Of a stretch of 64,000 bases of DNA, positions 18,414-61,952 are shown in pieces. The stretch lies in the IMG/VR virus record IMGVR_UViG_3300042473_000506; one strand, 5' to 3'. The translations under genes were made by a program, and so were the position numbers. The stretch is from a virus. Lineage: Duplodnaviria > Heunggongvirae > Uroviricota > Caudoviricetes. The notes under the pieces were generated by a model that was given only the letters and a program-made list of their open reading frames with translations, was not told where the DNA came from and ran no database searches. Positions within the stretch are counted from its first letter, which is position 1. Each line of letters opens with the position of its first letter.

Positions 18414-18442
18414 ATTATACAGCCAGAACGGCTGTAAGTCAA
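18414..18442 (-). promoter_or_regulatory. sigma70-type early promoter TTGACT-N17-TATAAT
   Basis: Minus strand 'cTTGACTtacagccgttctggctgTATAATataac'; spacer contains an inverted repeat cagcc/ggctg. Confidence 0.55.
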
Positions 18443-27247: not shown

Positions 27248-27781
27248 TTAGTTATCACTTACACTTTCATTATGTGCTACTTTAATGACGCTAAGACCAC
27301 TCTTCTCTAAAAATTCTACGCCCGCCATGTCCCTATAACTATTGCGATAGTATACGCTAGATATGCCGCTTTGGTATATAAGTTTGGCACAATCCAAACA
27401 AGGAGCGTGAGTAATAAAAATATCAGCATCACGGCCGCTTTGGCTCGACTTGGCCAGCTTCGCAATCGCATTGGATTCAGCATGTAATACCTCTGGTTTA
27501 GTTTTTAATCCGTAACGAACATTTCGTTGAGCACCTTCGTGCCATCCTTCGTGCGGGTACTTAGCATCGAACTCCTCTGGGTCAAGCCAACCACCTGCAC
27601 CCGAATCCCAAACTTTATCTTCACAGTCATTATCCCAGCCCGCAGGCATTCCGTTGTAGCCGTAGCTAATAACTGAACCATCTTTAACAATAACCGCACC
27701 TACCTGAAGTCTAATGGCGTGGCTAAGTTCAGCAGCTCTTAAAGCCCAATCCATATACATGTCTATGTATTTTTCTTTCAT
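27248..27781 (-). CDS. deoxycytidylate (dCMP) deaminase
   Basis: 'HAESNAIAK...' and 'THAPCLDCAKLIYQSGISSVYY' = H-A-E...P-C-x-x-C zinc deaminase signature. Confidence 0.75.
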   Translation of the reverse strand: MKEKYIDMYMDWALRAAELSHAIRLQVGAVIVKDGSVISYGYNGMPAGWDNDCEDKVWDSGAGGWLDPEEFDAKYPHEGWHEGAQRNVRYGLKTKPEVLHAESNAIAKLAKSSQSGRDADIFITHAPCLDCAKLIYQSGISSVYYRNSYRDMAGVEFLEKSGLSVIKVAHNESVSDN

Positions 27782-31036: not shown

Positions 31037-31219
31037 TCATTGTGTACTATTTAATCGATCAATCTCATCGGCTGCTTCTTCTAACAAATCTGCAATACGG
31101 TCTGGCGTGCCTTCCTGTACTGATTTACGGTCTTTGATCTGTCTGCGAATCTCTGCTCGCTTGCGTAGGCGGAATATAAGACTCTGTTCACTTACTGGTA
31201 AATGACTTTCGTCTTTCAT
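31037..31219 (-). CDS. hypothetical protein
   Basis: ORF. Confidence 0.3.
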   Translation of the reverse strand: MKDESHLPVSEQSLIFRLRKRAEIRRQIKDRKSVQEGTPDRIADLLEEAADEIDRLNSTQ

Positions 31220-31600: not shown

Positions 31601-32398
31601 TTACTTAGGCATCATCAATGCATTGAAGTTGCTTGGAACAACAATGGTCTGTACTTGTCCATTCTTGATACCTTCTGAGATATTCAACATGGCTTGTGCC
31701 TGCATGAATGCAATACTAGCACCTGAGTTATTTGCAAGTGCTGCCATACGACGGCTTTCAGCTTCGGCAGTCTTAACTTCAACTTCCTTCTGCTTGAGTT
31801 CGTTCTTACTACGAACCAATGCGTTAGCCGACTCAACAACAGTATCACTTGGCAGTACATTACGAATCATAACCTGACTGATCATAATGGAACCGTCCAA
31901 CTTTTCTTCAGAAAGGTTGCGAACAATTTCTTCCTTAATGTAGTTTTCCATGTCAGTGCGGTTGTCTGCCATATCCAATGCTTCGTACTTTCGTGCGGCT
32001 TTGTAGATAGCATTACGAGCATTCTGAACCACATAGTTGTACATCACATAAGTGTCACCTTTGAATTCAGCGTGGAACGATTTGTTCTTGGTTGAATAAA
32101 GTTCGGCAACATTCTGTGAATTGATGTTGTAAACAACTACAGCATCGAAGTCTTTCATGGTTGAGTTGTCCTTGGCCACCGGAGTCATATTCTCCAAGAC
32201 CACGTTAACATCCTTGACCGGGAATGTAAGCACATCACCGATGAATGTCTGATTGAACGAACCAGGCAACAACTCACCTGGTTGTACCTGTTTATCAAAA
32301 CCAACTCGCACACCGACCTCACCAGTCTCAATACGAGTACAAGCACTAGTTAGAGCAACTGCGGTCAAAACCAAACCAACTTTAATAAAACGCATCAT
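31601..32398 (-). CDS. SPFH/band-7 (prohibitin/HflC-like) lipoprotein
   Basis: Lipobox 'LTSAC' after a signal peptide; 'ETGEVGVRVGFDK' SPFH start; coiled-coil C-terminus. Confidence 0.55.
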   Translation of the reverse strand: MMRFIKVGLVLTAVALTSACTRIETGEVGVRVGFDKQVQPGELLPGSFNQTFIGDVLTFPVKDVNVVLENMTPVAKDNSTMKDFDAVVVYNINSQNVAELYSTKNKSFHAEFKGDTYVMYNYVVQNARNAIYKAARKYEALDMADNRTDMENYIKEEIVRNLSEEKLDGSIMISQVMIRNVLPSDTVVESANALVRSKNELKQKEVEVKTAEAESRRMAALANNSGASIAFMQAQAMLNISEGIKNGQVQTIVVPSNFNALMMPK

Positions 32399-35948: not shown

Positions 35949-35977
35949 ATTATACAAGAAAAAACCAACCCTGTCAA
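35949..35977 (-). promoter_or_regulatory. sigma70 consensus early promoter TTGACA-N17-TATAAT upstream of rIIA
   Basis: Minus strand 'cTTGACAgggttggttttttcttgTATAATatatac'; -35 lies in an inverted repeat ccaac/gttgg. Confidence 0.6.
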
Positions 35978-35994
35978 GAGTTGGTTTGTCCAAA

Positions 35995-36198
35995 TTATCT
36001 ACCCACTGCAATCAATCGAATTCGTAATGCGTTCAAACTTGACTGGATGGTCATAAGTTCTGCCAACGCCTTAGTGTAGTGACCGTTAGGATGTTTATCA
36101 TGTCCCAGTTTACGATCTACGCCTAGAGCCATTTTTACACTGGCAATGGCTGTGTCAACTGCTTCAATTCTTGCTTCGAGTTTTTCTAAATCTGTCAT
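35995..36198 (-). CDS. hypothetical protein
   Basis: ORF. Confidence 0.3.
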   Translation of the reverse strand: MTDLEKLEARIEAVDTAIASVKMALGVDRKLGHDKHPNGHYTKALAELMTIQSSLNALRIRLIAVGR

Positions 36199-36404
36199 TT
36201 TCTTTTTCCAATCTTGTCTACAACATCGGCCTTGCTCTGTAGCAGTTGGGCACGGAAGCGACGATAAACTCGCAGTGAAGCGACACTCATAGGATCTTCC
36301 TTGCCCTCCAACTCTGCTATCTTAGCATCCAGTTCGGCTTCGTGGGCACGATGACGTTCGACATCTGCCTTGAGCCCTTTCGCATCACCCCAGAAGAATT
36401 TCAT
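36195..36404 (-). CDS. hypothetical protein
   Basis: ORF. Confidence 0.3.
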   Translation of the reverse strand: MKFFWGDAKGLKADVERHRAHEAELDAKIAELEGKEDPMSVASLRVYRRFRAQLLQSKADVVDKIGKRK

Positions 36405-36405
36405 A

Positions 36406-36699
36406 TCATCCCCACTTTAAAATAAAGAACACAGCGTCCTTTTCGTTTTTAAATCTATACTCAAAGGGTCCAGTACTCCAGCGAGGATTATTATATCCTT
36501 CGTTTCTGTGTCCGAAATACTTTGAGCACCATGCCATCATCTCATCCTTTTCTTCCCACCAATCACCGCCTGAATAATACACAGTGTATTTCTGGGGAGC
36601 AAGTTCTTCTCGAACCCGCAGTTCTAAACTACGGGGCCGTTTAGTAAACCAGTTCATAGGAGTATGCGGATAAAAACTATTAACGTCTAAATCAATCAT
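36406..36699 (-). CDS. hypothetical protein
   Basis: ORF. Confidence 0.3.
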   Translation of the reverse strand: MIDLDVNSFYPHTPMNWFTKRPRSLELRVREELAPQKYTVYYSGGDWWEEKDEMMAWCSKYFGHRNEGYNNPRWSTGPFEYRFKNEKDAVFFILKWG

Positions 36700-37232
36700 A
36701 CACCTACGAACCGGCTGGCTTCGGCGTGCAACCCTGCGTCACCCTTGGTCATCACAGCCAACAACAATCTCTTTTCCTCCAAGTAGGTCTTGGCGAAAGC
36801 AGGATCGTGAGCCATGATGCTACGGCTGTTGCTGATCAAATCTGCCAACTTGATGGTCTGTGCTTCGGCGGGCGCTCTTGCAGTATGCTCACGGTCTATT
36901 GCCTTGCGGTGGGCACGATTGCCATCATGCGGTTGGCTAACATCAGTCAACCATCCAACCAAGGTAGCAACATCGATACCAAAGGCCATGTGGATGTCAG
37001 TGTATGTGCAACCAGTGTCTTCCACAACATCATGCAACCAAGCAGCCGCAACCATATCAGGAGTGCTACCCGGAACGCCTGCTACGATCTTGGCAACTTC
37101 AGCCGGGTGGACAATGTAGGGTTCGTTAGTGTACTTACGCCTCTGTCCAACTGCGGCGTGAGCAGCCATGGCATAGACTTGCGCCTTACGGACTACATCA
37201 AATCCGCTGAGATCCATTGTAAAATCTTCCAT
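36696..37232 (-). CDS. HD-domain (p)ppGpp hydrolase (SpoT/Mesh1-like)
   Basis: 'NEPYIVHPAEVAKIV...MVAAAWLHDVVEDT' parallels SpoT 'GEPYITHPVAVACIL...LMAALLHDVIEDT'. Confidence 0.7.
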   Translation of the reverse strand: MEDFTMDLSGFDVVRKAQVYAMAAHAAVGQRRKYTNEPYIVHPAEVAKIVAGVPGSTPDMVAAAWLHDVVEDTGCTYTDIHMAFGIDVATLVGWLTDVSQPHDGNRAHRKAIDREHTARAPAEAQTIKLADLISNSRSIMAHDPAFAKTYLEEKRLLLAVMTKGDAGLHAEASRFVGV

Positions 37233-37258
37233 GCTGCTCTCCTTGTTAATAAGTATAT

Positions 37259-37287
37259 ATTATAGCATGGATTTACCATGCTGTCAA
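37259..37287 (-). promoter_or_regulatory. sigma70 consensus early promoter TTGACA-N17-TATAAT upstream of the HD hydrolase gene
   Basis: Minus strand 'gTTGACAgcatggtaaatccatgcTATAATatatac'; spacer is a perfect hairpin gcatgg/ccatgc. Confidence 0.6.
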
Positions 37288-37514
37288 CCGGAAGTTTTAA
37301 CCACTTCCAGGATGGTAATTTCTACTACTAAATGCTTACGCAGTAGCATGAACTTTTTGAACTTGGCTTCTATGTCCGCCTGAATGTACTCGTCATGGTA
37401 AGGCATAGTAGCAACGTCCTCATAGGGTTCATCGTTTTCGTTTAACGCTATGAAACTGAGCTTCACTGTGCCCTGTTCGGGCTCTTTGAACATTTTAACA
37501 AATTTGTTGAACAT
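37284..37514 (-). CDS. hypothetical protein
   Basis: ORF. Confidence 0.3.
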   Translation of the reverse strand: MFNKFVKMFKEPEQGTVKLSFIALNENDEPYEDVATMPYHDEYIQADIEAKFKKFMLLRKHLVVEITILEVVKTSG

Positions 37515-37522
37515 GCAAATAT

Positions 37523-38068
37523 TTAGTGATGCCCTTTAATTTCGTTATCTTTAATCATACGAACTGCCCGATCCATGGAGATTACAATTTCCCCAGTTGA
37601 GTCCATACCCACATCCATGCAACGATATTTTTCCATGCCTGTAGTGCCACCGTGCAAGTGACCGTGAAAGTGCAGAGAACCACGATGCATCTGATCCCAT
37701 TCATAGATAGGATAGTGAAACATCACGCACTTGTGGCCATCATAGGTGATATCCAAATACTTATGTACTTCAACAAATGCATCGCGGAATGTTACATCCA
37801 TTAGGGTCTTGCGGTCATGGTTGCCTTCTACAAGGATCTTATCTCCGTTCAACCGATTCATCATTCGTCCAGCATCACTTCCTGACATAAACGCTACATC
37901 GCCTAAGATGTAGACTAAATCACCCGGCTCTACTTTGTCGTTCCATTCTTCCGCCATTGCGTTATTCATATAAGCAACATCGTCACGAAATCGTGCCCGT
38001 GTTTGCGGACAGAACTTCATAATGTTCTTGTGCCCGAAATGGAGATCCGAAGTAATCCAAGTTTTCAT
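37523..38068 (-). CDS. calcineurin-like metallophosphoesterase (Ser/Thr phosphatase-like)
   Basis: 'SDLHFGH', 'ILGDVAF', 'GNHD', 'HGH' metallophosphatase motifs in order. Confidence 0.7.
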   Translation of the reverse strand: MKTWITSDLHFGHKNIMKFCPQTRARFRDDVAYMNNAMAEEWNDKVEPGDLVYILGDVAFMSGSDAGRMMNRLNGDKILVEGNHDRKTLMDVTFRDAFVEVHKYLDITYDGHKCVMFHYPIYEWDQMHRGSLHFHGHLHGGTTGMEKYRCMDVGMDSTGEIVISMDRAVRMIKDNEIKGHH

Positions 38069-38103
38069 ATTATTTCCTATTATACAGCCAGTGACCTATA
38101 CCG

Positions 38104-38568
38104 TCAACTGGCATACCAAATTTCTTTAAACCCTTCTTCCTCAGTGGGCTCTTCCCAACTGGCAATCATGCTGGCAATAACATGATCCGGAATCTCTTTG
38201 CCAGGGCGGCTCATCAATCGGCGCATAAGTTCTTTGTGTTCAGGTGTCTTAAACACTATTGCAATATGCTCATAGTCAGGTAACATGTTAAACTTGCGAG
38301 TACGACTTGCAAGAGTAGTACTAGTTTGATCCCAGATAATATCTCGATTCATTTCACGAGCCGCAACAACTTCCTTGGCCATAAGGTCTACAGCAGTGGG
38401 CATAAAGTCTACAAACACTTCGCTGTAGGTGCGTCCTACTTCCTTTGCGTAGATTTCAACCCACTTGTCTGTGCTAATACAAGAGCAGGTCAACGCCCAG
38501 TCTTGTTCAGCCACCCAAGTACTTTTACCTGAACCAGGCACTCCAATCAATTGATAACATTTTGCCAT
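38104..38568 (-). CDS. P-loop NTPase / small nucleotide or polynucleotide kinase
   Basis: Walker A 'GVPGSGKST' at residues 9-17; 154 aa. Confidence 0.5.
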   Translation of the reverse strand: MAKCYQLIGVPGSGKSTWVAEQDWALTCSCISTDKWVEIYAKEVGRTYSEVFVDFMPTAVDLMAKEVVAAREMNRDIIWDQTSTTLASRTRKFNMLPDYEHIAIVFKTPEHKELMRRLMSRPGKEIPDHVIASMIASWEEPTEEEGFKEIWYAS

Positions 38569-39036
38569 TTAATCTACACTCCTAAAAGTTCGCCAATCGT
38601 CTATGTTTGGCTTTTCATCTTCATCATATGTCCAACCCAAAGCCTTCATCATGCGATGCTTGACCAATAGGTTGGGGCTACGGAATCTACCTGTGTCTTC
38701 AAAGCCCATCATAACACCAACTTCGCAAACTGCACCACTGCGGCAAATACCCGCATAGCAGTGAACAACTACATTCATACGGTTGTCCTTTGCGTGTTGC
38801 AACAGTCGAACAAGCTCGTTAGCCTGCTCTTGACTACATTTCATTGCTTCTTCCAACACTTCGTCCTTGGCCTCTACGTCCAAAAACTCAAAGTTGTGTT
38901 GCTCTTTAAACTTGTGAGCAGGCACAGGGCGCCAGCTGGCCGGATCAACAATGCTGATCAGCATACTGTTCTCACCTGCCTCATGATGAAACCTTGTGGG
39001 TATATCAGCGGCCGCTACGTTTTCAATCCATGGCAT
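38569..39036 (-). CDS. dual-specificity / tyrosine-phosphatase-like protein
   Basis: 'VVVHCYAGICRSGA' = HCx5R(S/T) phosphatase P-loop. Confidence 0.65.
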   Translation of the reverse strand: MPWIENVAAADIPTRFHHEAGENSMLISIVDPASWRPVPAHKFKEQHNFEFLDVEAKDEVLEEAMKCSQEQANELVRLLQHAKDNRMNVVVHCYAGICRSGAVCEVGVMMGFEDTGRFRSPNLLVKHRMMKALGWTYDEDEKPNIDDWRTFRSVD

Positions 39037-39059
39037 TTTATTCTCCTGCGCATTATATA

Positions 39060-39088
39060 ATTATAGCATCACTTTACCATTTTGTCAA
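39060..39088 (-). promoter_or_regulatory. sigma70 consensus early promoter TTGACA-N17-TATAAT upstream of the phosphatase gene
   Basis: Minus strand 'cTTGACAaaatggtaaagtgatgcTATAATtatataat'; aligns over ~38 bp with the 37259..37287 promoter; AGGAG RBS downstream. Confidence 0.6.
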
Positions 39089-39103: not shown

Positions 39104-39317
39104 TATGTCCACCCAAAAAACTCGCCTAGAAAAAAAAGCTGACGATATATTTGAGTTGCTGGATCATTATGTTTATCCCACAACGGGCGAAACACTGGCA
39201 GCTCAAAAGGGTTTGATGGTAGGCTGGTTAGCTAGACTGGCAACTACTGACTGGACAGTTGCAGAAGAATTAGAAAGACGATTACATCTTGCTCGGAAAC
39301 AAAAAGGTAAAATTTGA
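39104..39317 (+). CDS. possible small protein (70 aa; C-terminal part of ORF 38994..39317)
   Basis: Start at Met 'MSTQKTRLEKK...'; the upstream part of the listed ORF overlaps the minus-strand promoter. Confidence 0.25.
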
Positions 39318-39353
39318 ATTTTATACCCTCTAATTTTAGAAATAAATATAATT

Positions 39354-39905
39354 ATGAGATGTTTCTATAAATTAAAAATTAATAATCTAGAATCTATACA
39401 GGCACACGCATTATCTAAAATATCTGAAGAAGATCTTAATTTGATGCCAACTAGATTATTTTATCCAGAATATAATTTTTTAGATGATCAAGATCTCTTA
39501 TGTGCGTTAAATCAATACGGGTTGACAAATTATATACATAATGTTGCTCTTTTTGTTCTCAATTCAGGAGGCATAAGCCCTATTCATGTCGACGGGGATA
39601 ATGACTATAATTGGAGTTTAAATATACCTTTAAAAAATTGCAGATATACTCGAACTAATTTTTATCAATCTAATGAGGTTCCTGTTAAGAAAAAAAGTCC
39701 AAACAGTGATATAGAATACAGTATCTTTGATCCAAACTCTTGCACACTACTAGATTCTCTTCGATTATCTGATCCATTTTTAATGAATGTGTCAGTTCCT
39801 CACAGCATATCTAATCTTACTTTTACAACAAGAGTTTCTATATGTATAAGAATAAAATCTACATTTGACATAGAAGCCGCTCTGTCAGAATGGGATTTAA
39901 AATAA
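39354..39905 (+). CDS. small 2OG/Fe(II)-oxygenase-like (DSBH) protein, island paralogue 1
   Basis: 'SPIHVDGDNDYNWSLNIPLKNC' (HxD, NxPL) ... 'VSVPHSISN' ... 'RVSICIR' (distal His + Arg). Confidence 0.5.
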   Translation: MRCFYKLKINNLESIQAHALSKISEEDLNLMPTRLFYPEYNFLDDQDLLCALNQYGLTNYIHNVALFVLNSGGISPIHVDGDNDYNWSLNIPLKNCRYTRTNFYQSNEVPVKKKSPNSDIEYSIFDPNSCTLLDSLRLSDPFLMNVSVPHSISNLTFTTRVSICIRIKSTFDIEAALSEWDLK

Positions 39906-39912
39906 CGAATTT

Positions 39913-40452
39913 CTACATAATAAATTTTTCAAATCTACTTAATGCATCCTGCCATTTGAAATATTTCGAATTGTGTAATGATACTTTTATACTAACACAC
40001 CATCGAGGTGACGTTATATTTGATACGTTATGAGGAACACCGCTTTGAAATAAACACGCCCCTTGTAAGTTTACGGATTCGATTAACTGCATTTTATCAA
40101 TTTCGTAGTCTCTTTTCCAAGCTACACCATTGTGTTTCGGTAGTCCTGGATACTTATTAATTGATCTGTACCAGTTAACTAGACTATCATTTGCATTTAT
40201 ATAAAAATTTAAATTTGTTTGATCGTAAACGTTATAGTTGTCTATATGAATCGGGGAAGACGTGCTTTCCCCACTATAATAAATTATTAGGCCGTTTAGT
40301 CGAAAATCATCAATTTTCTTTAACAGTTCTAGCATATCTGGACTTAATATTTCTGTTATATGAGCAGTACCTAATTTCCATTGTTTTTCGCATACAAAAG
40401 ATTCGCTAAGAAACGGTACAGGAAATGACAGTTTTTTAAAATAATCGCTCAT
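39913..40452 (-). CDS. 2OG/Fe(II)-oxygenase-like protein, paralogue 2
   Basis: 'SPIHIDNYN...' ... 'SGVPHNVSN' ... 'RWCVSIK'. Confidence 0.5.
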   Translation of the reverse strand: MSDYFKKLSFPVPFLSESFVCEKQWKLGTAHITEILSPDMLELLKKIDDFRLNGLIIYYSGESTSSPIHIDNYNVYDQTNLNFYINANDSLVNWYRSINKYPGLPKHNGVAWKRDYEIDKMQLIESVNLQGACLFQSGVPHNVSNITSPRWCVSIKVSLHNSKYFKWQDALSRFEKFIM

Positions 40453-40515
40453 TCAAATATTTACCACCTAATTATTAATCGAGCTTTCTAGGAGTAATAA
40501 GAGCAGATAAATATT

Positions 40516-41082
40516 TTGATGAAATATTATAAAAAAATAGAAATTGAAAACTTAGAGGTAATACAGAAAAAAGTTTTACAATTTATTAAATTTAAACACC
40601 CCACTATATATTTTAGAAAAGTTGAGTCATCTTGGAACCATCTCGATGTTCCGAGTTTGTTGGCGGCATGCCCAGAACTTTCTGAGTCTTTCGGCAAATT
40701 GAATTTATCCTGCATTTTTGCGTCAATTCATATAATGTATGATAATACACATTCTGCTATACATACTGATATTACGCCCTGGAAAGCTAGAATTAACATT
40801 CCTATTTTAAATTGCAACGGAACATTTACTAAATTTTATACAGGTGAAAAGGTAGTAGAAGAAATTAGGACCATGGCAAATAATAAAACGTTTAAGGTAG
40901 ATGCAATTATAAATCCACTTGAATGTATTGAAGTAGACGCATACGAATTAACACAGCCGTTAATTCTTAAAACTTATATACCACATAGGGTTTTTATGAA
41001 TGAAACTTCGAGACCTAGAATAGCATTGTCAATTGGCTGCGATCCTGATCCATTCTATCAATATTTTTCGTCAGACGAATAA
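40516..41082 (+). CDS. 2OG/Fe(II)-oxygenase-like protein, paralogue 3
   Basis: 'SAIHTDITPWKARINIPILNC' ... 'TYIPHRVFMN' ... 'RIALSIG'. Confidence 0.5.
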   Translation: MMKYYKKIEIENLEVIQKKVLQFIKFKHPTIYFRKVESSWNHLDVPSLLAACPELSESFGKLNLSCIFASIHIMYDNTHSAIHTDITPWKARINIPILNCNGTFTKFYTGEKVVEEIRTMANNKTFKVDAIINPLECIEVDAYELTQPLILKTYIPHRVFMNETSRPRIALSIGCDPDPFYQYFSSDE

Positions 41083-41649
41083 ATCTGTAGTATCCACTAC
41101 ATCTTCAATATTTCTAAATTTAATAGGATGTAGTCCCCATCGCACGGTAAACATTATCCTTATATCATCATTAAAATTTTTAACACCATGCATGACATCA
41201 CCTTTAACAAAACAAGGCTTTGTTATCTCAAGGTCTTCGATAATTTCTAATTTAGAATTGTCTATAGGAGTTAGACCATGCAGGTAACTGCTTTGTACGG
41301 CACCCATGACTAGATTTTCTTTTGGACAATGATACCATAACATTTTTGTATTATGACAATTTAATACAGGAATATTTAATCCAAACGGTACTGTAATGAA
41401 TGAACTATCAACATGAGGAGCTAGCTCAGCATGCCCCGGTGTAAAATAAAACCTAAGTAATCGAATTTGACTTTTACTCCTCGACTTTAGCCACCTCATT
41501 AATTTTGGACAATGTTCAGTCATATGCTCTTCACTGAACGTACATGCATGTAGGCCTTTAGATGCATAATCATAATTAATAGATTTAATTAATTCGTGTT
41601 GAATCTCTTCAAAGTTGGGGATATGGATGTATCTATAAAGTTCTTGCAT
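41071..41649 (-). CDS. 2OG/Fe(II)-oxygenase-like protein, paralogue 4
   Basis: 'LAPHVDSSFITVPFGLNIPVLNC' ... 'GDVMHGVKN' ... 'RIMFTVR'; 3' ends of paralogues 3 and 4 overlap convergently by 12 nt. Confidence 0.5.
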   Translation of the reverse strand: MQELYRYIHIPNFEEIQHELIKSINYDYASKGLHACTFSEEHMTEHCPKLMRWLKSRSKSQIRLLRFYFTPGHAELAPHVDSSFITVPFGLNIPVLNCHNTKMLWYHCPKENLVMGAVQSSYLHGLTPIDNSKLEIIEDLEITKPCFVKGDVMHGVKNFNDDIRIMFTVRWGLHPIKFRNIEDVVDTTDLFV

Positions 41650-41694
41650 ACTTCCAAATATTTAGTAATAAATACTTTACAAACTTTAAAAATT

Positions 41695-42315
41695 ATGCTA
41701 CCTTCTATAACATTAAACCCTGATGATTATTATTATGCACTTAATCAGCCCTGTACAATCTTACCTCAACTATTAGAATATGTTCAAAGTGTAGAAGACT
41801 GGGAGGGATTAGATTGGCATACATTTTATTTAGATGTACCAAATAGGACTGCTTGTAATTTCGAATCAGATCCTGTAATTAAATTTTTTCTAGATCAGGG
41901 ATGGAGGTTAAACTTCACATGTATGCCCCCTAAGGGGCATTATCGATGGCATATCGATAATCAAGGAAATAGACAAACCGCAATAAATTTAGCACTAAAT
42001 GGTTTTGAAACAACTAAAGTTATGTGGCGACCAAATAGACCGTACGTGCGAAAAATGAATACAGAAATTATGGATATTCCCTACACACCTGGTACGTATT
42101 TTGTATTTAATACACAAGAGGAACATTGTGTAACTAATTTCAGTAATGAAAATAGATATCTATTAAGCATTACACCAGATAAAAGATTTGCTGTTCCTGA
42201 GTATTTTGACGGAATTTATAAAAATGTAAGTCCTAGTCGATACGCTGAAATTCTAAAAGGTTACAAGCTAGCATTTAAAGAGGTCGTTAGCGAAGTTAAA
42301 GCACAAGGTTGGTAG
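41695..42315 (+). CDS. 2OG/Fe(II)-oxygenase-like protein, paralogue 5 (start moved to internal Met)
   Basis: 'YRWHIDNQGNRQTAINLALNG' ... 'QEEHCVTN' ... 'RYLLSIT'; the listed ORF start (41596) overlaps paralogue 4 on the other strand. Confidence 0.45.
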   Translation: MLPSITLNPDDYYYALNQPCTILPQLLEYVQSVEDWEGLDWHTFYLDVPNRTACNFESDPVIKFFLDQGWRLNFTCMPPKGHYRWHIDNQGNRQTAINLALNGFETTKVMWRPNRPYVRKMNTEIMDIPYTPGTYFVFNTQEEHCVTNFSNENRYLLSITPDKRFAVPEYFDGIYKNVSPSRYAEILKGYKLAFKEVVSEVKAQGW

Positions 42316-42327
42316 TAGATTTTAAAT

Positions 42328-42936
42328 TCAGTCTTTCCATCTAATAGTATTCCAATCAAACATAAAATTTAAGTTAAGTTGTTCGTACGCTATCCATTGT
42401 TTAGTGTACTGAATATTAAGAGGAAAATCAATTACATTAAAATTATTATAAAATAGATGATGTAATTGTCTAGGTGATCGAGTTTCACCTAATCTTTTTC
42501 TTTTAAATGTTTCTATCAAATTTTTATTATAGTCATTAAATGTGATAGCAATAGCTTTACAATTATTGTCTATTGCCCATTGTTTGTGCATTGGTAAAAA
42601 AAGTTCTCTAGGTAATCCTAAATGTCGGTAATCTTTTGTAACCCATGTTCTACATCCGCCTATGGCAACTTCATTGGAGAATTCACTTCTATAAACTCCC
42701 GAACAGGCTACAATAGTTTCATTTTTTATCGCTAAGTGAAACGCTCCACTGGTTTCAAAATATCGATGCCTGTTGTATATTTGATGTATTAGTGTGTTAG
42801 ATTTAGTATGCCAATCTTCTACCCACATATTGCTGTGTGCTAGCTGAGTAATTTCTTCTGATGCCTCTTGACAAAATTTAAAAAATAAACTTTTATCCTC
42901 TAACTCGTCATACCGAATAAGTGTTAGATCAGACAT
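42328..42936 (-). CDS. hypothetical protein (possible acyltransferase fold)
   Basis: ORF between paralogues; no secure motif. Confidence 0.3.
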   Translation of the reverse strand: MSDLTLIRYDELEDKSLFFKFCQEASEEITQLAHSNMWVEDWHTKSNTLIHQIYNRHRYFETSGAFHLAIKNETIVACSGVYRSEFSNEVAIGGCRTWVTKDYRHLGLPRELFLPMHKQWAIDNNCKAIAITFNDYNKNLIETFKRKRLGETRSPRQLHHLFYNNFNVIDFPLNIQYTKQWIAYEQLNLNFMFDWNTIRWKD

Positions 42937-43477
42937 TGCTAACTAAATCTTCAAAATTTGGATTACCGTGAAATCTCATAGTAAATACCCACCGATCTTC
43001 GAGTTGATTTGATTGTGCTGAATGCGGACAATCTACTCTTAATAGATGAGGGCTGTCAATTTCTAATTTAAAATCTTCTGTATATGGTTCTTGCCACATA
43101 ATTTCATGATAAACGTTGTTGGATAACATTACAAGAGATGTGCTGTATTTTCCTTTATACCAAATTTGGTAACTGTTTTTACAACCTTTCAACGGAATGT
43201 TTATTGCAGATTTTATAATACCTTCTTCATTACCGTCTATATGAATACCTTGAAAACTATTCTTTGGTCTAATATAACTTAGACAATAGCGAACAGGAGG
43301 TATATTATACCTAGCTAGGTCTGCATCAATTATATGCTTTAATTGATTGTTGAGCTCGTGTCTTATTTGTATTTGTCTATCTACAGGAATTGAAGTATCT
43401 ATCTTTTTCTCTATATCTAAAATTGCAAATTCTTTTATAAGATGTTCGCATGTTAAATGAATTTTTTTACAGTACAC
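42929..43477 (-). CDS. 2OG/Fe(II)-oxygenase-like protein, paralogue 6
   Basis: 'QGIHIDGNEEGIIKSAINIPLKGC' ... 'VDCPHSAQSN' ... 'RWVFTMR'. Confidence 0.5.
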   Translation of the reverse strand: MYCKKIHLTCEHLIKEFAILDIEKKIDTSIPVDRQIQIRHELNNQLKHIIDADLARYNIPPVRYCLSYIRPKNSFQGIHIDGNEEGIIKSAINIPLKGCKNSYQIWYKGKYSTSLVMLSNNVYHEIMWQEPYTEDFKLEIDSPHLLRVDCPHSAQSNQLEDRWVFTMRFHGNPNFEDLVSNV

Positions 43478-43542
43478 GATGTTTATCGTAAAATTTTGGA
43501 ATATCTTTTATTTAACTCTCTGCAATTTTGTAATATAAATAT

Positions 43543-44169
43543 ATGAAACATATTATGATAGTAGCCACACCACTTAACCTTCCTACTGTAGTCCCTGACG
43601 ATTGGTCTGTATTTTGGAATATTTGGAACAATTATGGAAAACCTATAGTTAAAACGCAACAAAACCATAAGGGATCTTATTCAAAAATTGGAGATACAGA
43701 TGTCTGGAAAGGTTTAGATATCTATAAAAATAATTTATTTCGATCTGCATGGACTGCACCTTACTATGATATTCGAGAAGAACTTCCCTTAATGTATCAA
43801 ATGATTACAAAAATTCCTCTATTCTCTCTTGTCACTGGTGTTAGGGTTGTAGAAAGCCTAGGAAATATTCCGCCACACACTGATGATAATATAGATCGAT
43901 GGAACGTTAGAGCAATGTTGCATTATACTGATTCGAACCCTCAATGGTTTTTTACTAAACCGAATGATACAAAAACTGCTGTGTTGTTAACATTGCCAGA
44001 GTCCACTAATTGGTTTGCATATAACGATAAGTACACATGGCATGGGTCGAAGTATAACCCGGATCACCCTAAATTATTAATTCAAATGTTTGGAGTAGGA
44101 TTTAAGAACAGTCAGTTCCTACAAAAAAGTGCAGAAATGTACAAAGAATATACAATATCATATGACTAA
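43543..44169 (+). CDS. 2OG/Fe(II)-oxygenase-like protein, paralogue 7 (divergent)
   Basis: 'IPPHTDDNIDRWNVRAMLHY' ... 'KYTWHGSKYN'. Confidence 0.4.
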   Translation: MKHIMIVATPLNLPTVVPDDWSVFWNIWNNYGKPIVKTQQNHKGSYSKIGDTDVWKGLDIYKNNLFRSAWTAPYYDIREELPLMYQMITKIPLFSLVTGVRVVESLGNIPPHTDDNIDRWNVRAMLHYTDSNPQWFFTKPNDTKTAVLLTLPESTNWFAYNDKYTWHGSKYNPDHPKLLIQMFGVGFKNSQFLQKSAEMYKEYTISYD

Positions 44170-44950
44170 TTTATTTCAAGCTAGTTCAACTACTGTTAGG
44201 TATTCTCATATTGTAGCAAGGTTAGCAATTATTATAGGTGCATTCTTTGTAACATTTAATTTACCCTTATTACTTGTGTCTGCTATTGCATATCATGTTT
44301 TACTATCTATCGGTATAAGCATAATGATGCATAGATACTTCAGCCATAAAAGTTTTGAATTTAAAAATAATATTGTCAGAAAAGTTTTTATTATAATTTC
44401 ATTGCTTTCGTTGCGAGGAAGTCCAATAGCTTGGGCATACATCCATCGAGCACATCACGAACACGTAGATACCGAAGATGATCCGCATACTCCTGTTGGT
44501 AGAAAATTTAACTTTTTTGGATTACTTGACAACAAAAATAAAGCTGATGATATTCAGATATTTAAAATTAGATCTATGATGACCAAGGAGCACCTATTTA
44601 TTAATCAATACTATTGGTTGATCTTAGCATGTTTGTTAGTACCTTTTGCATTTATTAATTTTACATTATTTTATTATACATGGCTAGTTCCTGTAGTTCT
44701 TGTACAATTTTCTATTAATTTACAAAACTATTTAGGACATATGTCAGGTATAGGTGCGTATAGGACTTACACTAATCCATCTAGCGGCAATAGTCAAAAT
44801 AGTTTGTTATTGTGGCCTTTATATTTAGGTGAAGCGTGGCATAACAACCACCATGCACATGCTCGACATTATCACTACGGAACTGAAATAAGTGGAAAGT
44901 GGTGGGAGATCGATCCCGGTGCAATGCTCATTAAGTTACTGAAAAAATGA
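44162..44950 (+). CDS. integral-membrane di-iron fatty-acid desaturase / hydroxylase-like enzyme
   Basis: Three histidine boxes 'HRYFSH', 'HRAHHEH', 'WHNNHHAH' separated by hydrophobic spans. Confidence 0.6.
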   Translation: MTNLFQASSTTVRYSHIVARLAIIIGAFFVTFNLPLLLVSAIAYHVLLSIGISIMMHRYFSHKSFEFKNNIVRKVFIIISLLSLRGSPIAWAYIHRAHHEHVDTEDDPHTPVGRKFNFFGLLDNKNKADDIQIFKIRSMMTKEHLFINQYYWLILACLLVPFAFINFTLFYYTWLVPVVLVQFSINLQNYLGHMSGIGAYRTYTNPSSGNSQNSLLLWPLYLGEAWHNNHHAHARHYHYGTEISGKWWEIDPGAMLIKLLKK

Positions 44951-45507
44951 TACGATTTTTAACAATGGATGACTTGCCGGATTGCATGAAAATTGCACCA
45001 TTAAAAAATAGAACCGGTGGCACTGTTCCATTAACACTCGAAGGATTTTTAGGTGCCTTTGAAAAATATTTCCAGGATGATGAATTTTGCCGTGTGATTG
45101 GATACTTTGAAAATAATGAACTTGTTAGTTTTGTATGTATCAGAATGTTCGAAACTACGATGAGAGGAAAATTTTGGGTTATTTCGGGATTATATACTAA
45201 GAATTTTAAAAGTTATTTTAGCTTTAACCATTCAGGAATAGGCGAATTAATTAAATTTGCATTCGATTATGCTGAATCACGAGGTTGGTATGAATATTAT
45301 TATTGCACTGCCGAACGTGTAATAAATGTATATGAAAGACAATGGAAACGATCACACTCTCATAGATACGAACATATATTGTTAGACGTTGTTCCACCTA
45401 ATACAAAACCATTTTATGAATTGCACTGGAGACTAATGGGGCAAGAAGTTAAACCTGTCCCAATGATTGTTAAAAAGCGAGCGTTAAAACAAGAATTTAG
45501 AAAATAA
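44947..45507 (+). CDS. hypothetical protein (GNAT-like acyltransferase fold possible)
   Basis: 186-aa ORF; beta-alpha pattern only. Confidence 0.3.
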   Translation: MIRFLTMDDLPDCMKIAPLKNRTGGTVPLTLEGFLGAFEKYFQDDEFCRVIGYFENNELVSFVCIRMFETTMRGKFWVISGLYTKNFKSYFSFNHSGIGELIKFAFDYAESRGWYEYYYCTAERVINVYERQWKRSHSHRYEHILLDVVPPNTKPFYELHWRLMGQEVKPVPMIVKKRALKQEFRK

Positions 45508-45553
45508 AAATCAGTTATTTTATCCTATAAATATAATGCTCATAGGAAACTAA

Positions 45554-46330
45554 ATGAACACAGCATTTTTATCTAGCAGCACTAGGGGTGCTCAACTATT
45601 CTTGATATTAAATTTAATAGGTACTTTCGGTGCTGTCTGGTTGTACGGATTAAATTTTAATTCTTTTATGATGGTACTAGTGGGATACTTTTTATATGGT
45701 TGTTTAGGTATCGTCGTAACTTATCACAGAAATCTTTCTCACAATAGTTATAGAACACATCCGATCATTGTAAAGATATTTTCATTATTAGGATGCTTTG
45801 CAGGGACCGGCAGTCCACTTGCATGGGTGGCCATTCATATCAATCATCACTTAAAGAGTGACAAGCCTACTGATCCGCATAGTCCGTTATACAAAGGGGT
45901 AAAGATCTTTATGATGGATTATATAAATGAAGTTGATAAAGATACAAAATGGAGAATGAGGGCATTAGTCACTGACAGATTCCAGCAATTCCTACATAGA
46001 TATTATTTTGCAATCATTGCAACCTATAGCCTTGTACTATTTTTAATAGGAGGATTTTGGTTGATGGTATTTTTTCATTGGGCGCCTGCTGCAATGACCG
46101 CCCTTATGAGTAATGTTGTTAATTATGTGGGACACAAACCAAGTTGGTGGGGTGGATATAGAACACACAATCTAAATGATCAAAGTACAAATAATTGGCT
46201 ATGGGCTATTCCTAGTTGGGGGGAAGCGTGGCACAACAATCATCATAGATATCCTAGGAATTTTAGTTTTGGAAACAAGTGGTGGGAGATTGATATTTCG
46301 GCACTTGTAATTAGATTGATTAAAATTTAA
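45554..46330 (+). CDS. integral-membrane di-iron desaturase / hydroxylase-like enzyme, second paralogue
   Basis: Histidine boxes 'HRNLSH', 'HINHHLKSD', 'WHNNHHRYP'; same C-terminal 'KWWEID' as 44162..44950. Confidence 0.6.
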   Translation: MNTAFLSSSTRGAQLFLILNLIGTFGAVWLYGLNFNSFMMVLVGYFLYGCLGIVVTYHRNLSHNSYRTHPIIVKIFSLLGCFAGTGSPLAWVAIHINHHLKSDKPTDPHSPLYKGVKIFMMDYINEVDKDTKWRMRALVTDRFQQFLHRYYFAIIATYSLVLFLIGGFWLMVFFHWAPAAMTALMSNVVNYVGHKPSWWGGYRTHNLNDQSTNNWLWAIPSWGEAWHNNHHRYPRNFSFGNKWWEIDISALVIRLIKI

Positions 46331-47202
46331 TGAAATTTAATAGCAAACATCCAATTGTGGCTATGCCCATGAATGGAGTATCCAATGTTGACTTAGCTAT
46401 TGCTGTAACTCAAGCGGGTGCTGTACCTAGTTTGTCAATCTTTAATTATTATGAAGGTGGAAAAGTAAATCTAAAGCATGTAGATGCCAGTTTAAAAAGG
46501 TTTACAGATGCAACCAGTTCTACAGAAATAATTTTAAGTATGCACTGGGAACATTTTATATGGACTCCTGTTATAGATGTTCTATTAGAAAATAATATAA
46601 AATTAGTTGAACTTTTTATTAGACCATCAGATCATCATTTGTGGCCTGAATTATCTAAACAGATCGACAATATGAAGGTACACGGTATAGCTGTAATGTT
46701 TAAAACTTCTAATCGGCTACCTATGTCCTATTTTGATTCGATAGTATTGAAAGGTCCTCAGGCTGCTGGGAGATCATTCGGTAGTCTAGTATCATTAGAA
46801 GATCGATATGATGCTATGAAAGAACAAGTAGGATCAAGAATCATTCCAAGCGGTGGTATTGGCAGTCCTGAACAGGTAAAATATTTTATGGACAGAGAAG
46901 CATTAGCTGTGGGTATTGGCACACTACTTGCAGCATCTGAAGAAAGTTGTGTGTCAAGCGATACTAAACAAAAAATTATAGAGTCCACATCAAAAGATAT
47001 CAAATTAATAGGTCCGTTAAATTGCAGAGGGCTGTTATTTTCTAGACTAGAAAATGACGACGATAACAATTCCAAATCTCTATATGAGGGTATCAAGGGA
47101 ACTAATTCCGGATGCATCTATGTAGGCAACGGAATAGACTATATAAACAAAATAATGCCAGTAAAAGATATAATAGAGTGGTTAGTTAAAGATGTTAATT
47201 AA
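46330..47202 (+). CDS. FMN-dependent nitronate monooxygenase / FabK-like TIM-barrel oxidoreductase
   Basis: 'PIVAMPMNGVSNVDLAIAVTQAGAVPSLSIF' and 'IIPSGGIGSPEQVKYFMDREALAVGIGTLL' parallel the NMO/FabK FMN-binding blocks. Confidence 0.55.
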   Translation: MKFNSKHPIVAMPMNGVSNVDLAIAVTQAGAVPSLSIFNYYEGGKVNLKHVDASLKRFTDATSSTEIILSMHWEHFIWTPVIDVLLENNIKLVELFIRPSDHHLWPELSKQIDNMKVHGIAVMFKTSNRLPMSYFDSIVLKGPQAAGRSFGSLVSLEDRYDAMKEQVGSRIIPSGGIGSPEQVKYFMDREALAVGIGTLLAASEESCVSSDTKQKIIESTSKDIKLIGPLNCRGLLFSRLENDDDNNSKSLYEGIKGTNSGCIYVGNGIDYINKIMPVKDIIEWLVKDVN

Positions 47203-48358
47203 TAAGTTACTGGGCTATTATACATGTGACGGTTTAGAATTTGAATCAAAAATTCAAGCATGTTTTCATTCTCTTAAAGTCAACAAGCCAGTTGACTGGG
47301 TCTTTAATGATTTAGAATTTAGCATACACGACTGGACTAAAGAACCAGAAGAAACATTAGACCAATTATATGATAAACGAGTGAGAGATCTGCGAGCAAA
47401 ATACGATTATCTTATTTTAAGTTACAGCGGCGGCGCTGATAGCCATCAAATTTTAATGAGTTTTATTAGACAAGGTATACACTTAGATGAGCTGCTAATC
47501 AACACAATGGAAAAAGGTTGGAAACCTTATACTAGTTTAGATCCTAGAAATGTTTCTAGTTTGAATTCAGGGGCCGAGCATTACCTACAAACTATTCCAA
47601 GACTAAAAGAAGTAGAGCAGTTTATTCCAAAAACAAAGATTACAATCTGTGATCTAACTGATCAAGTTAACGATTCATTATTGTCAGTAGGTGATGCAAG
47701 CTGGGTATTGCAAAAAAGAGAAGCATTGAATCCTATAGGAATTACTCGATTTAACTATGTATACTTTGATGAAGTTCGTAGACTGTTTGATAAAGAGAAG
47801 AAGATAGGTATTATACTTGGAGTAGAAAAACCTAAAAGCATTATCCATGAAGGTCAATTTTGGATGAGATTCAATGATCGATCAGCTAACATGGTTACAA
47901 TTGTCGATCACATAAAAGATTACGACAACAGTGTTATTGAATATTTTTACTGGAGCCCTGAGTGTGTGCCATTATTAATCAAACAAGGACATGTGATAAA
48001 AAGATGGCTAGAATTAAATCCTAATTATCAGCAATACTGGAACACTAAAACTTCTAGTTATGCTTCTGTAAGATTTTGGCATGAGAGATTATTAAGAAAA
48101 GTTATGTATCCGACAACTTGGAATAATTCTTGGTTTCAAGTGCATAAAGCAACAAAAGATTGGTATAGCGAATTTGACAATTGGTTCATCGAAGGAAGCG
48201 TTAAAACAAAAGCCAATGTCATATGGCATGAGGGCATTGATTATGTTAGGAATTCTTTAACTCCATTTTTGAGATACGATTTAGAAACAAATCAACCAGA
48301 CGGATTACAATCCTTTGTTAAACAATATTTAATTGGTAGAGTTGAAACACGGTCTTAA
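47192..48358 (+). CDS. PP-loop ATP pyrophosphatase (adenine-nucleotide alpha-hydrolase superfamily)
   Basis: 'LILSYSGGADSHQILMSF' SGGxDS motif. Confidence 0.55.
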   Translation: MLINKLLGYYTCDGLEFESKIQACFHSLKVNKPVDWVFNDLEFSIHDWTKEPEETLDQLYDKRVRDLRAKYDYLILSYSGGADSHQILMSFIRQGIHLDELLINTMEKGWKPYTSLDPRNVSSLNSGAEHYLQTIPRLKEVEQFIPKTKITICDLTDQVNDSLLSVGDASWVLQKREALNPIGITRFNYVYFDEVRRLFDKEKKIGIILGVEKPKSIIHEGQFWMRFNDRSANMVTIVDHIKDYDNSVIEYFYWSPECVPLLIKQGHVIKRWLELNPNYQQYWNTKTSSYASVRFWHERLLRKVMYPTTWNNSWFQVHKATKDWYSEFDNWFIEGSVKTKANVIWHEGIDYVRNSLTPFLRYDLETNQPDGLQSFVKQYLIGRVETRS

Positions 48359-49263
48359 TCTTTTGTTTTGATCTTATTTTCTAAAATAAATTTTCTAATA
48401 TTGTCATTATAATTCAACGATTCTTTAATCTTAGATTTATCAGTATCTGATTTGAAAAATAATCCTATATCAGTAAGCCCTTGCTTATATTCTGCTGATT
48501 GAAATATTGTTTTTAGATCAGCTGTAATTTTACCTTTAGTATATTCATCCATAGTCTTAGGAACAATTACTGAAAGATAGCTTTGGAATGGGAACACTTC
48601 TTTATAAAAACTTTCCCATGTTGATGTTTTTAATCCAACAGCATGACTAGTTAATAATAATTTTAAATTTTCGTGATTGGTGTAGGCTTTAACTGTCGGG
48701 TAGTTGCCAAACATACAATCAACATGCCCGCCAACTAAATCTAATACAGACTTATTTCCCCCTTGAGCATAGGGAACGACGATATGATTGTTTTTAGTTT
48801 TTGATAGTAATACTTCAGTGGCGATATGTTCGGAAGACCCATAACCTCCAACAGCAAAGGACAATGATTTTTTAGTATTGATAAAGTCTTGATAGGATGT
48901 TATTCCTGTTTTAGCATTACAGAGTAATGCAGAGGGCATAATTCCTATAGTGGCCAGCACTTCTAAATCAATTTTGTGATCGTAATTTAAGTCGTTAAAA
49001 TTGATAGGGTTGGTAACAAAAACTTGAACTACAGTAGCCAGTAGCATAGTTTTTTCATTCATTAAATGACCCATAGCAATTTTGCCAGATGCTCCTGGCC
49101 GATTGACTACTACATATTTTTTATCTAAGTTTTTAGCGATATACCGTGTTGTGATATCGCTCACACCACCGGGAGCGTGCATAACTGTAAACTCTAATGA
49201 TTGAGCTACTGCAACTTTTGAAAAAAATAAAATTAATAAAAGAAAAAATTTGTTGATTAGCAT
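48355..49263 (-). CDS. secreted TctC/Bug-family-like solute-binding protein
   Basis: Signal peptide 'MLINKFFLLLILFFSKVAVAQS'; 'HAPGGVSDITTRYIA...VVNRPGASGKIAMGHL' resembles the TctC 'PAGGGTD...V.N.PGAGG' signature. Confidence 0.45.
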   Translation of the reverse strand: MLINKFFLLLILFFSKVAVAQSLEFTVMHAPGGVSDITTRYIAKNLDKKYVVVNRPGASGKIAMGHLMNEKTMLLATVVQVFVTNPINFNDLNYDHKIDLEVLATIGIMPSALLCNAKTGITSYQDFINTKKSLSFAVGGYGSSEHIATEVLLSKTKNNHIVVPYAQGGNKSVLDLVGGHVDCMFGNYPTVKAYTNHENLKLLLTSHAVGLKTSTWESFYKEVFPFQSYLSVIVPKTMDEYTKGKITADLKTIFQSAEYKQGLTDIGLFFKSDTDKSKIKESLNYNDNIRKFILENKIKTKD

Positions 49264-49281
49264 GATATATAAATATTCTTT

Positions 49282-51377: not shown

Positions 51378-51426
51378 TTATCTAGGTAGAGTTAAATTAA
51401 CATTTTTACAAAATTAGAACTAACAA

Positions 51427-53172: not shown

Positions 53173-53204
53173 TGTAAGAGTAATGTGCGTATATAAATAG
53201 TTGT

Positions 53205-56896: not shown

Positions 56897-56902
56897 AGAA
56901 AA

Positions 56903-61303: not shown

Positions 61304-61357
61304 AAATTTTTATTATACAGGATATTTATAATCCTGTCAACCTCTATTTTAATAACT

Positions 61358-61846: not shown

Positions 61847-61952
61847 AAAATACTAACTTTACATTTTTAAAGAACAGTGCTGTTATTAGCAGCGTATGTA
61901 TAAATTATACTGTCTTTCTCAGTGTGTGTCAACAGGTATTTAAAAATATTTT

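Follow-up and report, generated by a model that had tools for sequence, protein, structure and literature searches.

A shuffling gene cluster of an uncultured jumbo phage that probably joins RNA end healing to a PaSpo-like alarmone hydrolase

The stretch of DNA analyzed here is the 64,000-nt IMG/VR virus record IMGVR_UViG_3300042473_000506 (Caudoviricetes), denoted from now on as the window, and all coordinates are given on its whole length. From position 39088 down to 35949, it carries on its minus strand a compact gene cluster with its flanks, in which four enzymes are encoded: a stand-alone cysteine phosphatase (DSP), a P-loop protein of the polynucleotide kinase family (KIN), a metallophosphoesterase (MPE) and an alarmone hydrolase similar to PaSpo (HD). 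The reading that we favor, and to which we assign a probability of roughly 0.6, is that the cluster constitutes an early module of an uncultured jumbo phage, combining RNA/tRNA end-healing with alarmone hydrolysis for counter-defense. It is read as an RNA end-repair module because a kinase, one or more phosphoesterases and the T4 Rnl1-family RNA ligase, which is embedded in the same cluster in many sister phages, make up the canonical heal-and-seal set. A first-pass annotation of this DNA had already recognized the four minus-strand enzyme genes between 36696 and 39088, and both the coordinates and the profile matches obtained here agree with the motifs and domains it had assigned to them. The four genes are as follows:

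38569..39036, minus strand: DSP, 155 aa, with the sequence HCYAGICRS, that is, HCX5R(S)
38104..38568, minus strand: KIN, 154 aa, with a GVPGSGKST P-loop
37523..38068, minus strand: MPE, 181 aa, with the DxH, GD, GNHD and GHxH motifs of metallophosphoesterases
36696..37232, minus strand: HD, 178 aa, with an LHDVVEDT HD-ED motif

From its sequence, KIN is most likely a polynucleotide 5'-kinase (Pnk/Pnkp kinase-domain type) and not a signaling kinase. It matched the Pfam family AAA_33 (E 2.5e-17) and phrog_505, a polynucleotide kinase family (6.7e-9), and its positions 13-153 aligned with TIGR04075, the bacterial Pnkp model (E 1.6e-5), at 23 bits against a cut-off of 750 that was set for a three-domain protein. 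Among PDB entries, Pnkp1 (4xrp) was matched at E 0.008 and tRNA-Sec kinase was matched as well, while the alignment with T4 Pnk was limited to the P-loop; no similarity of KIN to protein kinases was found. The P-loop GxxGxGK(S/T), the catalytic Asp34 and the lid arginines are all intact, and residues G9, P11, G14, K15, S32, D34, T82, R89, R117 and R121 are invariant among nine phage homologs. Homologs of 34-39% identity occur in unrelated phages, and in four of them, Caulobacter phage Cr30, Synechococcus phage BUCT-ZZ01, Rhizobium phage RHph_I1_18 and Ruegeria phage RpAliso, the homolog lies directly 3' of an RNA ligase. In RHph_I1_18 the genes beside this pair are one for a CCA-adding enzyme and a Thg1-like one, and in RpAliso a separate HAD_PNKP phosphatase is found near the KIN homolog. 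In the Xanthomonas jumbo phage XacN1 the homolog is followed by Hen1 (Hen1_N, E 5e-59) and by a Pnkp ligase domain (PF16542, E 1e-30), an arrangement that is a split Pnkp/Hen1 operon, and in Campylobacter phage CP21 it is fused to an HD domain.

From its profile matches, HD is classed as a RelA/SpoT-type small alarmone hydrolase (SAH) of the PaSpo kind. The HD_4 family was matched at E 1.7e-15, with 57.5 bits where the cut-off is 27.2, and TIGR00691 (spoT_relA) at E 1.6e-20, with the alignment confined to positions 2-123; thus, the protein consists of a lone RSH hydrolase domain and lacks a synthetase domain. The hydrolase domains of Mesh1 and Rel in the PDB were matched at E values from 1e-11 to 6e-14. 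Comparison with PaSpo of Salmonella phage SSU5 yielded 47.6% identity over residues 28-168 by tblastn (E 5e-29) and 45% in a MAFFT alignment. Residues H42, H67-D68, E71-D72, K128-L129-D131 and N135 are invariant with respect to SSU5 PaSpo and other phage SAHs, and the metal and catalytic residues also align with those of Mesh1 and Rel. Membership in this type makes the hydrolysis of ppGpp plausible for HD. The phage homolog has been characterized from another angle: PaSpo neutralizes every toxSAS toxin tested, namely CapRel, PhRel, PhRel2, FaRel and FaRel2 (PMC7229694), it removes the modification that FaRel2 installs on the 3' end of tRNA (PMC11245113), and it has been used to detoxify CapRel-SJ46 (PMC9712102).

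MPE is a calcineurin-like binuclear metallophosphoesterase of the aq_1665-like family. It matched phrog_547 (2e-51) and PDB entry 1xm7 (E 5e-9), the motifs DxH, GD, GNH(D/E), H and GHxH are present, with the metal-binding motif residues invariant, and the fold of its AF2 model (pLDDT 91.8) agrees with this assignment. The binuclear metallophosphoesterases CthPnkp and lambda phosphatase are established 2',3'-cyclic phosphodiesterase-monoesterases (PMC2190708), and we infer that MPE would likewise be an end-healing enzyme acting on 2',3'-cyclic phosphates or 3'-phosphates. No specific structural or sequence tie of MPE to the 2',3'-phosphatase module of Pnkp (the CthPnkp/lambda phosphatase clade) was observed, and no functional account of aq_1665 was found in the literature. 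Homologs of the aq_1665 type are present in 1405 phage records. In the T5-like Vibrio phage VPG01, a relative lies about 0.8 kb 3' of an annotated RNA ligase; in BUCT-ZZ01 one is placed about 1 kb from the pair formed by KIN and the ligase; and in phiN3 it adjoins KIN, with an HD_4 protein and a Band_7 gene nearby.

DSP belongs to the DSP/PTP-fold cysteine phosphatase superfamily. Its match to Pfam DSPc (E 9e-8, 32.4 bits) falls just under the gathering cut-off of 33.5, followed by Tc-R-P (7e-6) and PTP-SAK (2.4e-4; the link of PTP-SAK being that given in the Pfam description). Of 70 representatives of the family, 69 reach E<=0.01 with DSPc and 29 match PTP-SAK. The AF2 model (pLDDT 84) has the PTP fold with an intact HCX5R(S) loop, and the family invariants are D53, C93, G96, R99, S100 and N122, Asp53 being the candidate acid. 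The structure of DSP is not closest to that of the RNA 5'-phosphatases, baculovirus BVP or PIR1/DUSP11. The first protein-database search retrieved only relatives of at least 79% identity and was uninformative on remote homology. The relatives of DSP number 585 in IMG/VR and over 3000 in the protein collection; clustering at 50% gave 491 representatives, nearly all of them stand-alone proteins of 130-160 aa, and this search disclosed no informative domain fusions. Distant structural relatives exist in other jumbo phages, and BUCT-ZZ01 carries the sole homolog among cultured phages. Scans of IMG/VR for distant relatives returned no loci with P0216 and P0189; an alignment-based scan did retrieve some. 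DSP is the most conserved protein of the cluster (ratio of nonsynonymous to synonymous substitution, dN/dS, of 0.036), and since its gene is, in addition, tightly coupled to that of KIN, it may be a second end-phosphatase, which is the weakest inference of the model.

The second body of evidence came from the comparison of the lineage, covering approximately 160 related environmental loci from IMG/VR, 80 of them anchored on DSP (at 90-96% identity) and 80 anchored on the ligase. In the 80 DSP-anchored loci, the genes for DSP, KIN, MPE and HD remain neighbors in several orders, with a mosaic of identities to the proteins of the window (KIN 51-100%, MPE 35-96%, HD 71-98%). Sixteen of these loci contain an extra gene of 298 aa, which encodes a T4 Rnl1-family RNA ligase (PF09511, RNA_lig_T4_1, E 6e-12, above threshold). 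The ligase-anchored scan gave 202 relatives, of which 80 loci were kept; many loci are incomplete, so that the following neighbor counts are minimums. Rnl1 sits inside the cluster in all 80, and within 6 kb of it were found MPE (78 loci), DSP (67), KIN (53) and HD (33). In 20 loci, MPE is the gene immediately 5' of Rnl1, at a distance of no more than 60 nt and often with overlapping stop and start codons; KIN occupies this place in 14 loci and HD in 12, and in some relatives Rnl1 begins at the stop codon of one of two small ORFs of the cluster, p67 or p69. Clustering was retained through at least 25 gene orders. The association with Rnl1 is conserved but shuffled.

Several further observations were made on these loci. 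Other cargo found in the clusters of sister phages includes an N6/N4 DNA methyltransferase, a radical-SAM/SPASM enzyme and a histidine-phosphatase-family protein (L073:12418-13284, L022:6416-7753 and L062:6256-6849). In the sister phages, Rnl1 is followed by a small ORF, 'p72', which often precedes KIN; the window has a homolog of p72 at 31052-31219 on the minus strand, isolated from the cluster and 3' of the Band_7 gene. In other samples, near-identical phages are represented by long contigs that start exactly at KIN (L003) or within MPE (L004), corresponding to about 37900-38568 of the window, indicating that assemblies break at this hypervariable cluster.

Besides the four enzymes, the region contains small conserved ORFs and a set of promoters, all on the minus strand:

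39060..39088, minus strand: P_DSP promoter, exact TTGACA-17 nt-TATAAT with TG extension, serving DSP and KIN
38079..38107, minus strand: P_MPE promoter, TTGACG-17 nt-TATAAT, with the TGA stop of KIN within its -35 hexamer
37284..37514, minus strand: p76, a conserved 76-aa ORF between MPE and HD
37259..37287, minus strand: P_HD promoter, exact TTGACA-17 nt-TATAAT with TG extension, with the TGA stop of p76 within its -35 hexamer
36406-36699, 36195-36404 and 35995-36198, minus strand: p97, p69 and p67, small conserved ORFs 3' of HD and in the same transcription unit
35962-35987, minus strand: terminator-like hairpin at the 3' boundary of the cluster (dG -14.8 kcal/mol, z -3.1)
35949-35977, minus strand: rIIA promoter, the fourth of the region, of consensus sequence and overlapping the hairpin

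The first-pass annotation had reported perfect sigma70 promoters upstream of HD and DSP, and both were confirmed as exact consensus sequences with a TG extension. It had also described four consecutive genes; their order and coordinates hold, but p76 intervenes between MPE and HD, and P_MPE had been missed. Because of this extra ORF and the additional promoters, the region is better described as three short transcription units than as one operon. The first comprises P_DSP, DSP and KIN, with the start codon of KIN directly after the stop codon of DSP; the second, P_MPE, MPE and p76; and the third, P_HD, HD, p97, p69 and p67, ending at 35995. Beyond the boundary hairpin come rIIA, rIIB and then the Band_7 gene. 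In the window, the composite promoter of rIIA lies directly after p67, with no Rnl1 between them. Purifying selection acts on each of the eight ORFs of the cluster (dN/dS of 0.04-0.17 against relatives, dS being near saturation); the small ORFs share this constraint (0.07 for p76 and 0.08-0.15 for p97, p69 and p67). No family match for p76 was found in profile scans of Pfam, PHROG and TIGRFAM, and in some relatives it accompanies MPE and HD.

Chance does not account for the consensus promoters. The window holds nine instances of the strict pattern TTGACN-N16-18-TATAAT, every one of them on the minus strand, compared to 0.34 expected, and across 1.79 Mb of related loci the gene strand has 468 instances and the opposite strand none. 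These are probably early promoters used by the sigma70 RNA polymerase of the host. In related phages, a strict promoter of its own precedes DSP in 32 of 142 cases, HD in 23 of 58 and MPE in 14 of 137, and since this was so in only 1 of 91 cases for the ligase, Rnl1 is presumably read from the promoters of its neighbors. The P_MPE sequence recurs in relatives, and P_HD is conserved among them as TTGACAGCATGGTAAA(A/T)CCATGCTATAAT. Its spacer is palindromic (GCATGG-TAAAT-CCATGC), and the palindrome is kept in relatives. Palindromes in 17-nt spacers were also noticed at the promoters at 18414-18442 (CAGCC..GGCTG) and 61312-61340 (CAGGAT..ATCCTG), and such elements may serve as operators or as recombination motifs. 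With the stops of KIN (38104-38107) and p76 (37284-37287) sitting in TTGAC, the arrangement of gene ends and promoters is very compact. At the 3' boundary, the hairpin loop holds the -35 hexamer of the rIIA promoter, and the T-run of the hairpin is the spacer of that promoter; this composite (35949-35987) resembles the PeSL element of T4-like phages.

Heal-and-seal chemistry mends RNA that has been cut by metal-independent ribonucleases; in phage T4, Pnkp and Rnl1 counter the PrrC anticodon nuclease in this way, and the same chemistry is used by bacterial Pnkp/Hen1. Applied to the cluster, the proposed mechanism is as follows. KIN would phosphorylate 5'-OH ends of RNA, while MPE, possibly with DSP, would take off 2',3'-cyclic, 3' or 2' phosphates. 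The third phosphohydrolase, HD, would strip 3'-pyrophosphates, either from tRNA CCA ends modified by toxSAS/CapRel-type toxins or from the free alarmones (pp)pApp and (p)ppGpp. The healed ends would be sealed by Rnl1, co-transcribed with these genes in many sister phages. The phage of the window would possess a ligase-less version, in which the ligase is encoded elsewhere in a genome of about 375 kb, a host enzyme takes its place, or healing alone is sufficient (for instance, for 3'-end damage); since the cluster lacks Rnl1, any sealing would need a ligase from another locus or from the host. The presence of at least 18 phage tRNA genes in the same window was also counted in favor of the end-healing and alarmone-hydrolase reading. 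A bolder version, which we offer tentatively and hold to be well short of an even chance, would picture the cluster as a 'tRNA first-aid kit' against several kinds of damage inflicted by defenses: the SAH acting on the pyrophosphate that CapRel/FaRel2-type toxins leave on the 3'-CCA of tRNA, the split Pnk and the aq_1665-type MPE acting on anticodon-nuclease cuts, and DSP, a phage-specific family hitherto uncharacterized, being a new RNA-end phosphatase (2'/3'- or 5'-) that partners the kinase, with the ligase-less version of the window using a host ligase or CCA-adding enzyme. As a separate possibility, a phage-borne defense system was considered and set aside, because the PADLOC models gave no match for the cluster proteins or the ligase.

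A number of observations weigh against an RNA repair module with a built-in alarmone hydrolase. No RNA ligase was detected in the 64-kb window by tblastn with the Rnl1-type ligases of Cr30, BUCT-ZZ01 and L062, and no ligase family appeared in Pfam scans of called genes and larger ORFs covering the window plus 10 kb past its low-coordinate end (about 74 kb). Most of the evidence for clustering derives from one broad phage lineage and is not corrected for phylogeny, so that clustering partly reflects shared ancestry. Moreover, the association of DSP depends on evolutionary distance: at 60-85% identity its gene is usually still found beside MPE and/or KIN, while below about 60% identity to the window protein it often stands alone and the linkage fades. 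Finally, the homologs of the SAH in six unrelated phages (SSU5, D6, DLP_6, RHph_X66, pVa-21 and Psa21) have no RNA-repair neighbors, and the linkage of SAH to RNA repair is thus regarded as lineage-specific.

Part of these facts can be accommodated by assuming that the genes are not functionally coupled at all, but are independent 'morons', each with its own target, gathered in a hyperplastic region 5' of rIIA by means of PeSL-like promoter/terminator cassettes. Each unit does have a separate promoter, a composite of hairpin and promoter marks the border of the region, gene order is shuffled with mosaic identity among relatives (for instance KIN and MPE, within the ranges given above), the assemblies of relatives break there, and in more distant phages SAH and DSP are unlinked to RNA repair; PeSL-mediated shuffling is, besides, documented in T4-like phages (PMC4122927). 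However, the same five families stay together through all those orders, Rnl1 is start/stop-coupled by turns to MPE, KIN or HD and is hardly ever preceded by a promoter of its own, and the adjacency of KIN and a ligase recurs in five unrelated phages. That kinase, phosphoesterase and ligase should add up to the canonical RNA-repair set also weighs against a collection of independent genes, an explanation that we consider unlikely, although it deserves to be kept in mind.

The first-pass annotation had proposed instead a host takeover of the stringent response and of phospho-signaling, in which HD would lower (p)ppGpp while the kinase and the two phosphatases rewire host phospho-signaling early in infection. 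The part concerning HD is plausible, given that it has a bona fide RSH hydrolase domain with its Mn and catalytic residues intact; likewise, the fold of DSP is of the HCX5R protein-phosphatase type, and the candidate signaling genes have consensus sigma70 promoters. In contrast, KIN is unlike protein kinases and belongs to the Pnk/AAA_33 family, which is tied to RNA ligases, the clusters of sister phages have an RNA ligase built into them and co-transcribed, and the tested homolog, PaSpo, is known for the neutralization of toxSAS. A signaling takeover therefore fits HD alone and neither the family of the kinase nor the embedded ligase, which makes it improbable as an account of the cluster. 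The same annotation had also allowed for a nucleotide or DNA-end processing set. Its intuition of end processing by a kinase plus a phosphatase was nearly right, except that RNA, and not DNA, is the most likely substrate. In this version, 3'-phosphate/5'-OH nicks in DNA would be healed, or nucleotides dephosphorylated, in support of DNA modification and replication genes. T4 Pnkp acts on DNA ends too, MPE has a weak match (E 0.0014) to PdeM, a ligase-associated phosphoesterase of the DNA-damage response, and the window is rich in genes for nucleotide and DNA modification (dCMP deaminase, PTPS, GTP cyclohydrolase I and UvdE). Nevertheless, the ligase associated with the cluster is an RNA ligase (PF09511) and not a DNA ligase, and the partners of KIN elsewhere are Rnl1, Hen1, Pnkp-ligase, the CCA-adding enzyme and Thg1. 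Because every associated partner is an RNA enzyme, this alternative was disfavored and appears very improbable.

The end-healing and alarmone-hydrolase module that we favor can be placed among several known systems. Like T4 Pnkp and Rnl1, it has a P-loop 5'-kinase with a Pnk-type active site and, in sister phages, a PF09511 ligase, it is encoded by a phage alongside tRNA genes, and it would follow the same heal-then-seal logic. Unlike T4 Pnkp, KIN is a separate protein of 154 aa without the fused HAD (DxDxT) phosphatase, so that the phosphatase role would pass to the metallophosphoesterase and/or the Cys-phosphatase, and the window lacks the ligase. The bacterial Pnkp/Hen1 and Pnkp1-Rnl-Hen1 systems (Clostridium thermocellum, Capnocytophaga) share the chemistry of a kinase, a binuclear metallophosphoesterase and a ligase; their kinase domains are the best curated and PDB matches of KIN, and the XacN1 homolog lies in a Hen1 operon. 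In the cluster, by contrast, every domain has a gene to itself, which can have its own promoter, and there is no Hen1 methyltransferase. HD shares with SSU5 PaSpo its phage origin, its single RSH hydrolase domain, 45-48% identity and the conserved catalytic residues; PaSpo has unrelated neighbors, whereas HD is located among RNA-repair genes and, in sister phages, is start/stop-coupled to them. As for the PeSL cassettes of T4-like phages (PMC4122927, PMC2839356), the common features are consensus early-type promoters and a stem-loop at cassette borders, along with indels and the shuffled order of small accessory genes between close relatives; the differences are that only one clear composite of hairpin and promoter (35987-35949) exists here and that the phage is not a known T4-like virus.

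The closest precedent is a computational survey of jumbo phages by Iyer et al. 2021 (PMC7824862), whose excerpted text describes RNA ligases accompanied by polynucleotide kinases and phosphoesterases, which in a few phages include 'calcineurin-like and HD-like' ones, as well as HD alarmone phosphodiesterases and abundant tRNA genes, all read as counter-defense. What those excerpts do not describe is the present combination, in which Pnk and Rnl1 are clustered with a PaSpo SAH, an MPE of the aq_1665 type and a stand-alone Cys-phosphatase of the DSP type, or its cassette-like shuffling; the term 'DSP' is absent from the whole paper. A literature search revealed, among its top results, no paper pairing an alarmone hydrolase with an RNA ligase or a polynucleotide kinase. 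Since RNA repair and alarmone hydrolases as counter-defense of jumbo phages have already been published, the finding represents an extension and not a new principle. What appears to be new is the combination of a split Pnk, an aq_1665-type MPE, a stand-alone DSP and a PaSpo SAH, with or without Rnl1, as well as the tRNA-centered role implied for the SAH and the cassette-like shuffling of the set within a lineage that is uncultured and very abundant. If the proposal is true, a single co-regulated and shuffling gene set of this jumbo-phage lineage would unite two activities that have been studied separately: the healing and ligation of RNA ends, directed against anticodon nucleases, and the hydrolysis of alarmones or tRNA pyrophosphates, directed against toxSAS/CapRel systems. 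It would also provide candidate functions for the aq_1665-type metallophosphoesterases and for a small family of stand-alone Cys-phosphatases, and the variants with and without ligase would constitute a natural experiment on the contribution of end-healing alone.

Regarding the phage itself, no DNA near-identical to the region came up when 50,697 phage records were searched with megablast. The HD protein is encoded with exactly the same sequence on many metagenomic contigs 0.2-0.4 Mb long, one of which is a JGI contig of 374,908 bp. This set of contigs, together with the relatives of DSP and the gene content, led to the assignment of the window to an abundant uncultured jumbo phage. The tRNA genes mentioned above lie between 58676 and 64000, all of them on the minus strand, with consensus promoters among them at 61312-61340 and 61904-61932. 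The window also encodes rIIA/rIIB, 7-deazaguanine-type genes, glycosyltransferases and a clamp-loader region. The presence of UvdE endonuclease (9649-10677), a QueD-like PTPS (13177-13683), GTP cyclohydrolase I (24656-25354) and dCMP deaminase (27248-27781), along with several glycosyltransferases, suggests a DNA modification of the 7-deazaguanine type and/or with sugars. The Band_7 (stomatin/prohibitin) gene, at 31601-32398 and a few kb from the cluster, encodes a protein with 46% identity to the BUCT-ZZ01 copy, and Band_7 genes are likewise found near the KIN and MPE homologs of the unrelated phages phiN3 and BUCT-ZZ01.

The segment from 39300 to 57000 is a low-GC island (0.29-0.35 compared to about 0.40-0.46 elsewhere) with genes on both strands, and it looks like an acquired island of biosynthesis or auxiliary metabolism. 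It contains several paralogous ORFs, each about 180 aa long and only weakly similar to one another (39354-39905, 39913-40452 and 40516-41082), two fatty-acid desaturases, an NMO-type oxidoreductase, two QueC-like HUP ATPases and two TctC-like binding proteins. A B12/radical-SAM enzyme is encoded in the island as well, and a similar second one is found outside it, at 62063-63565.

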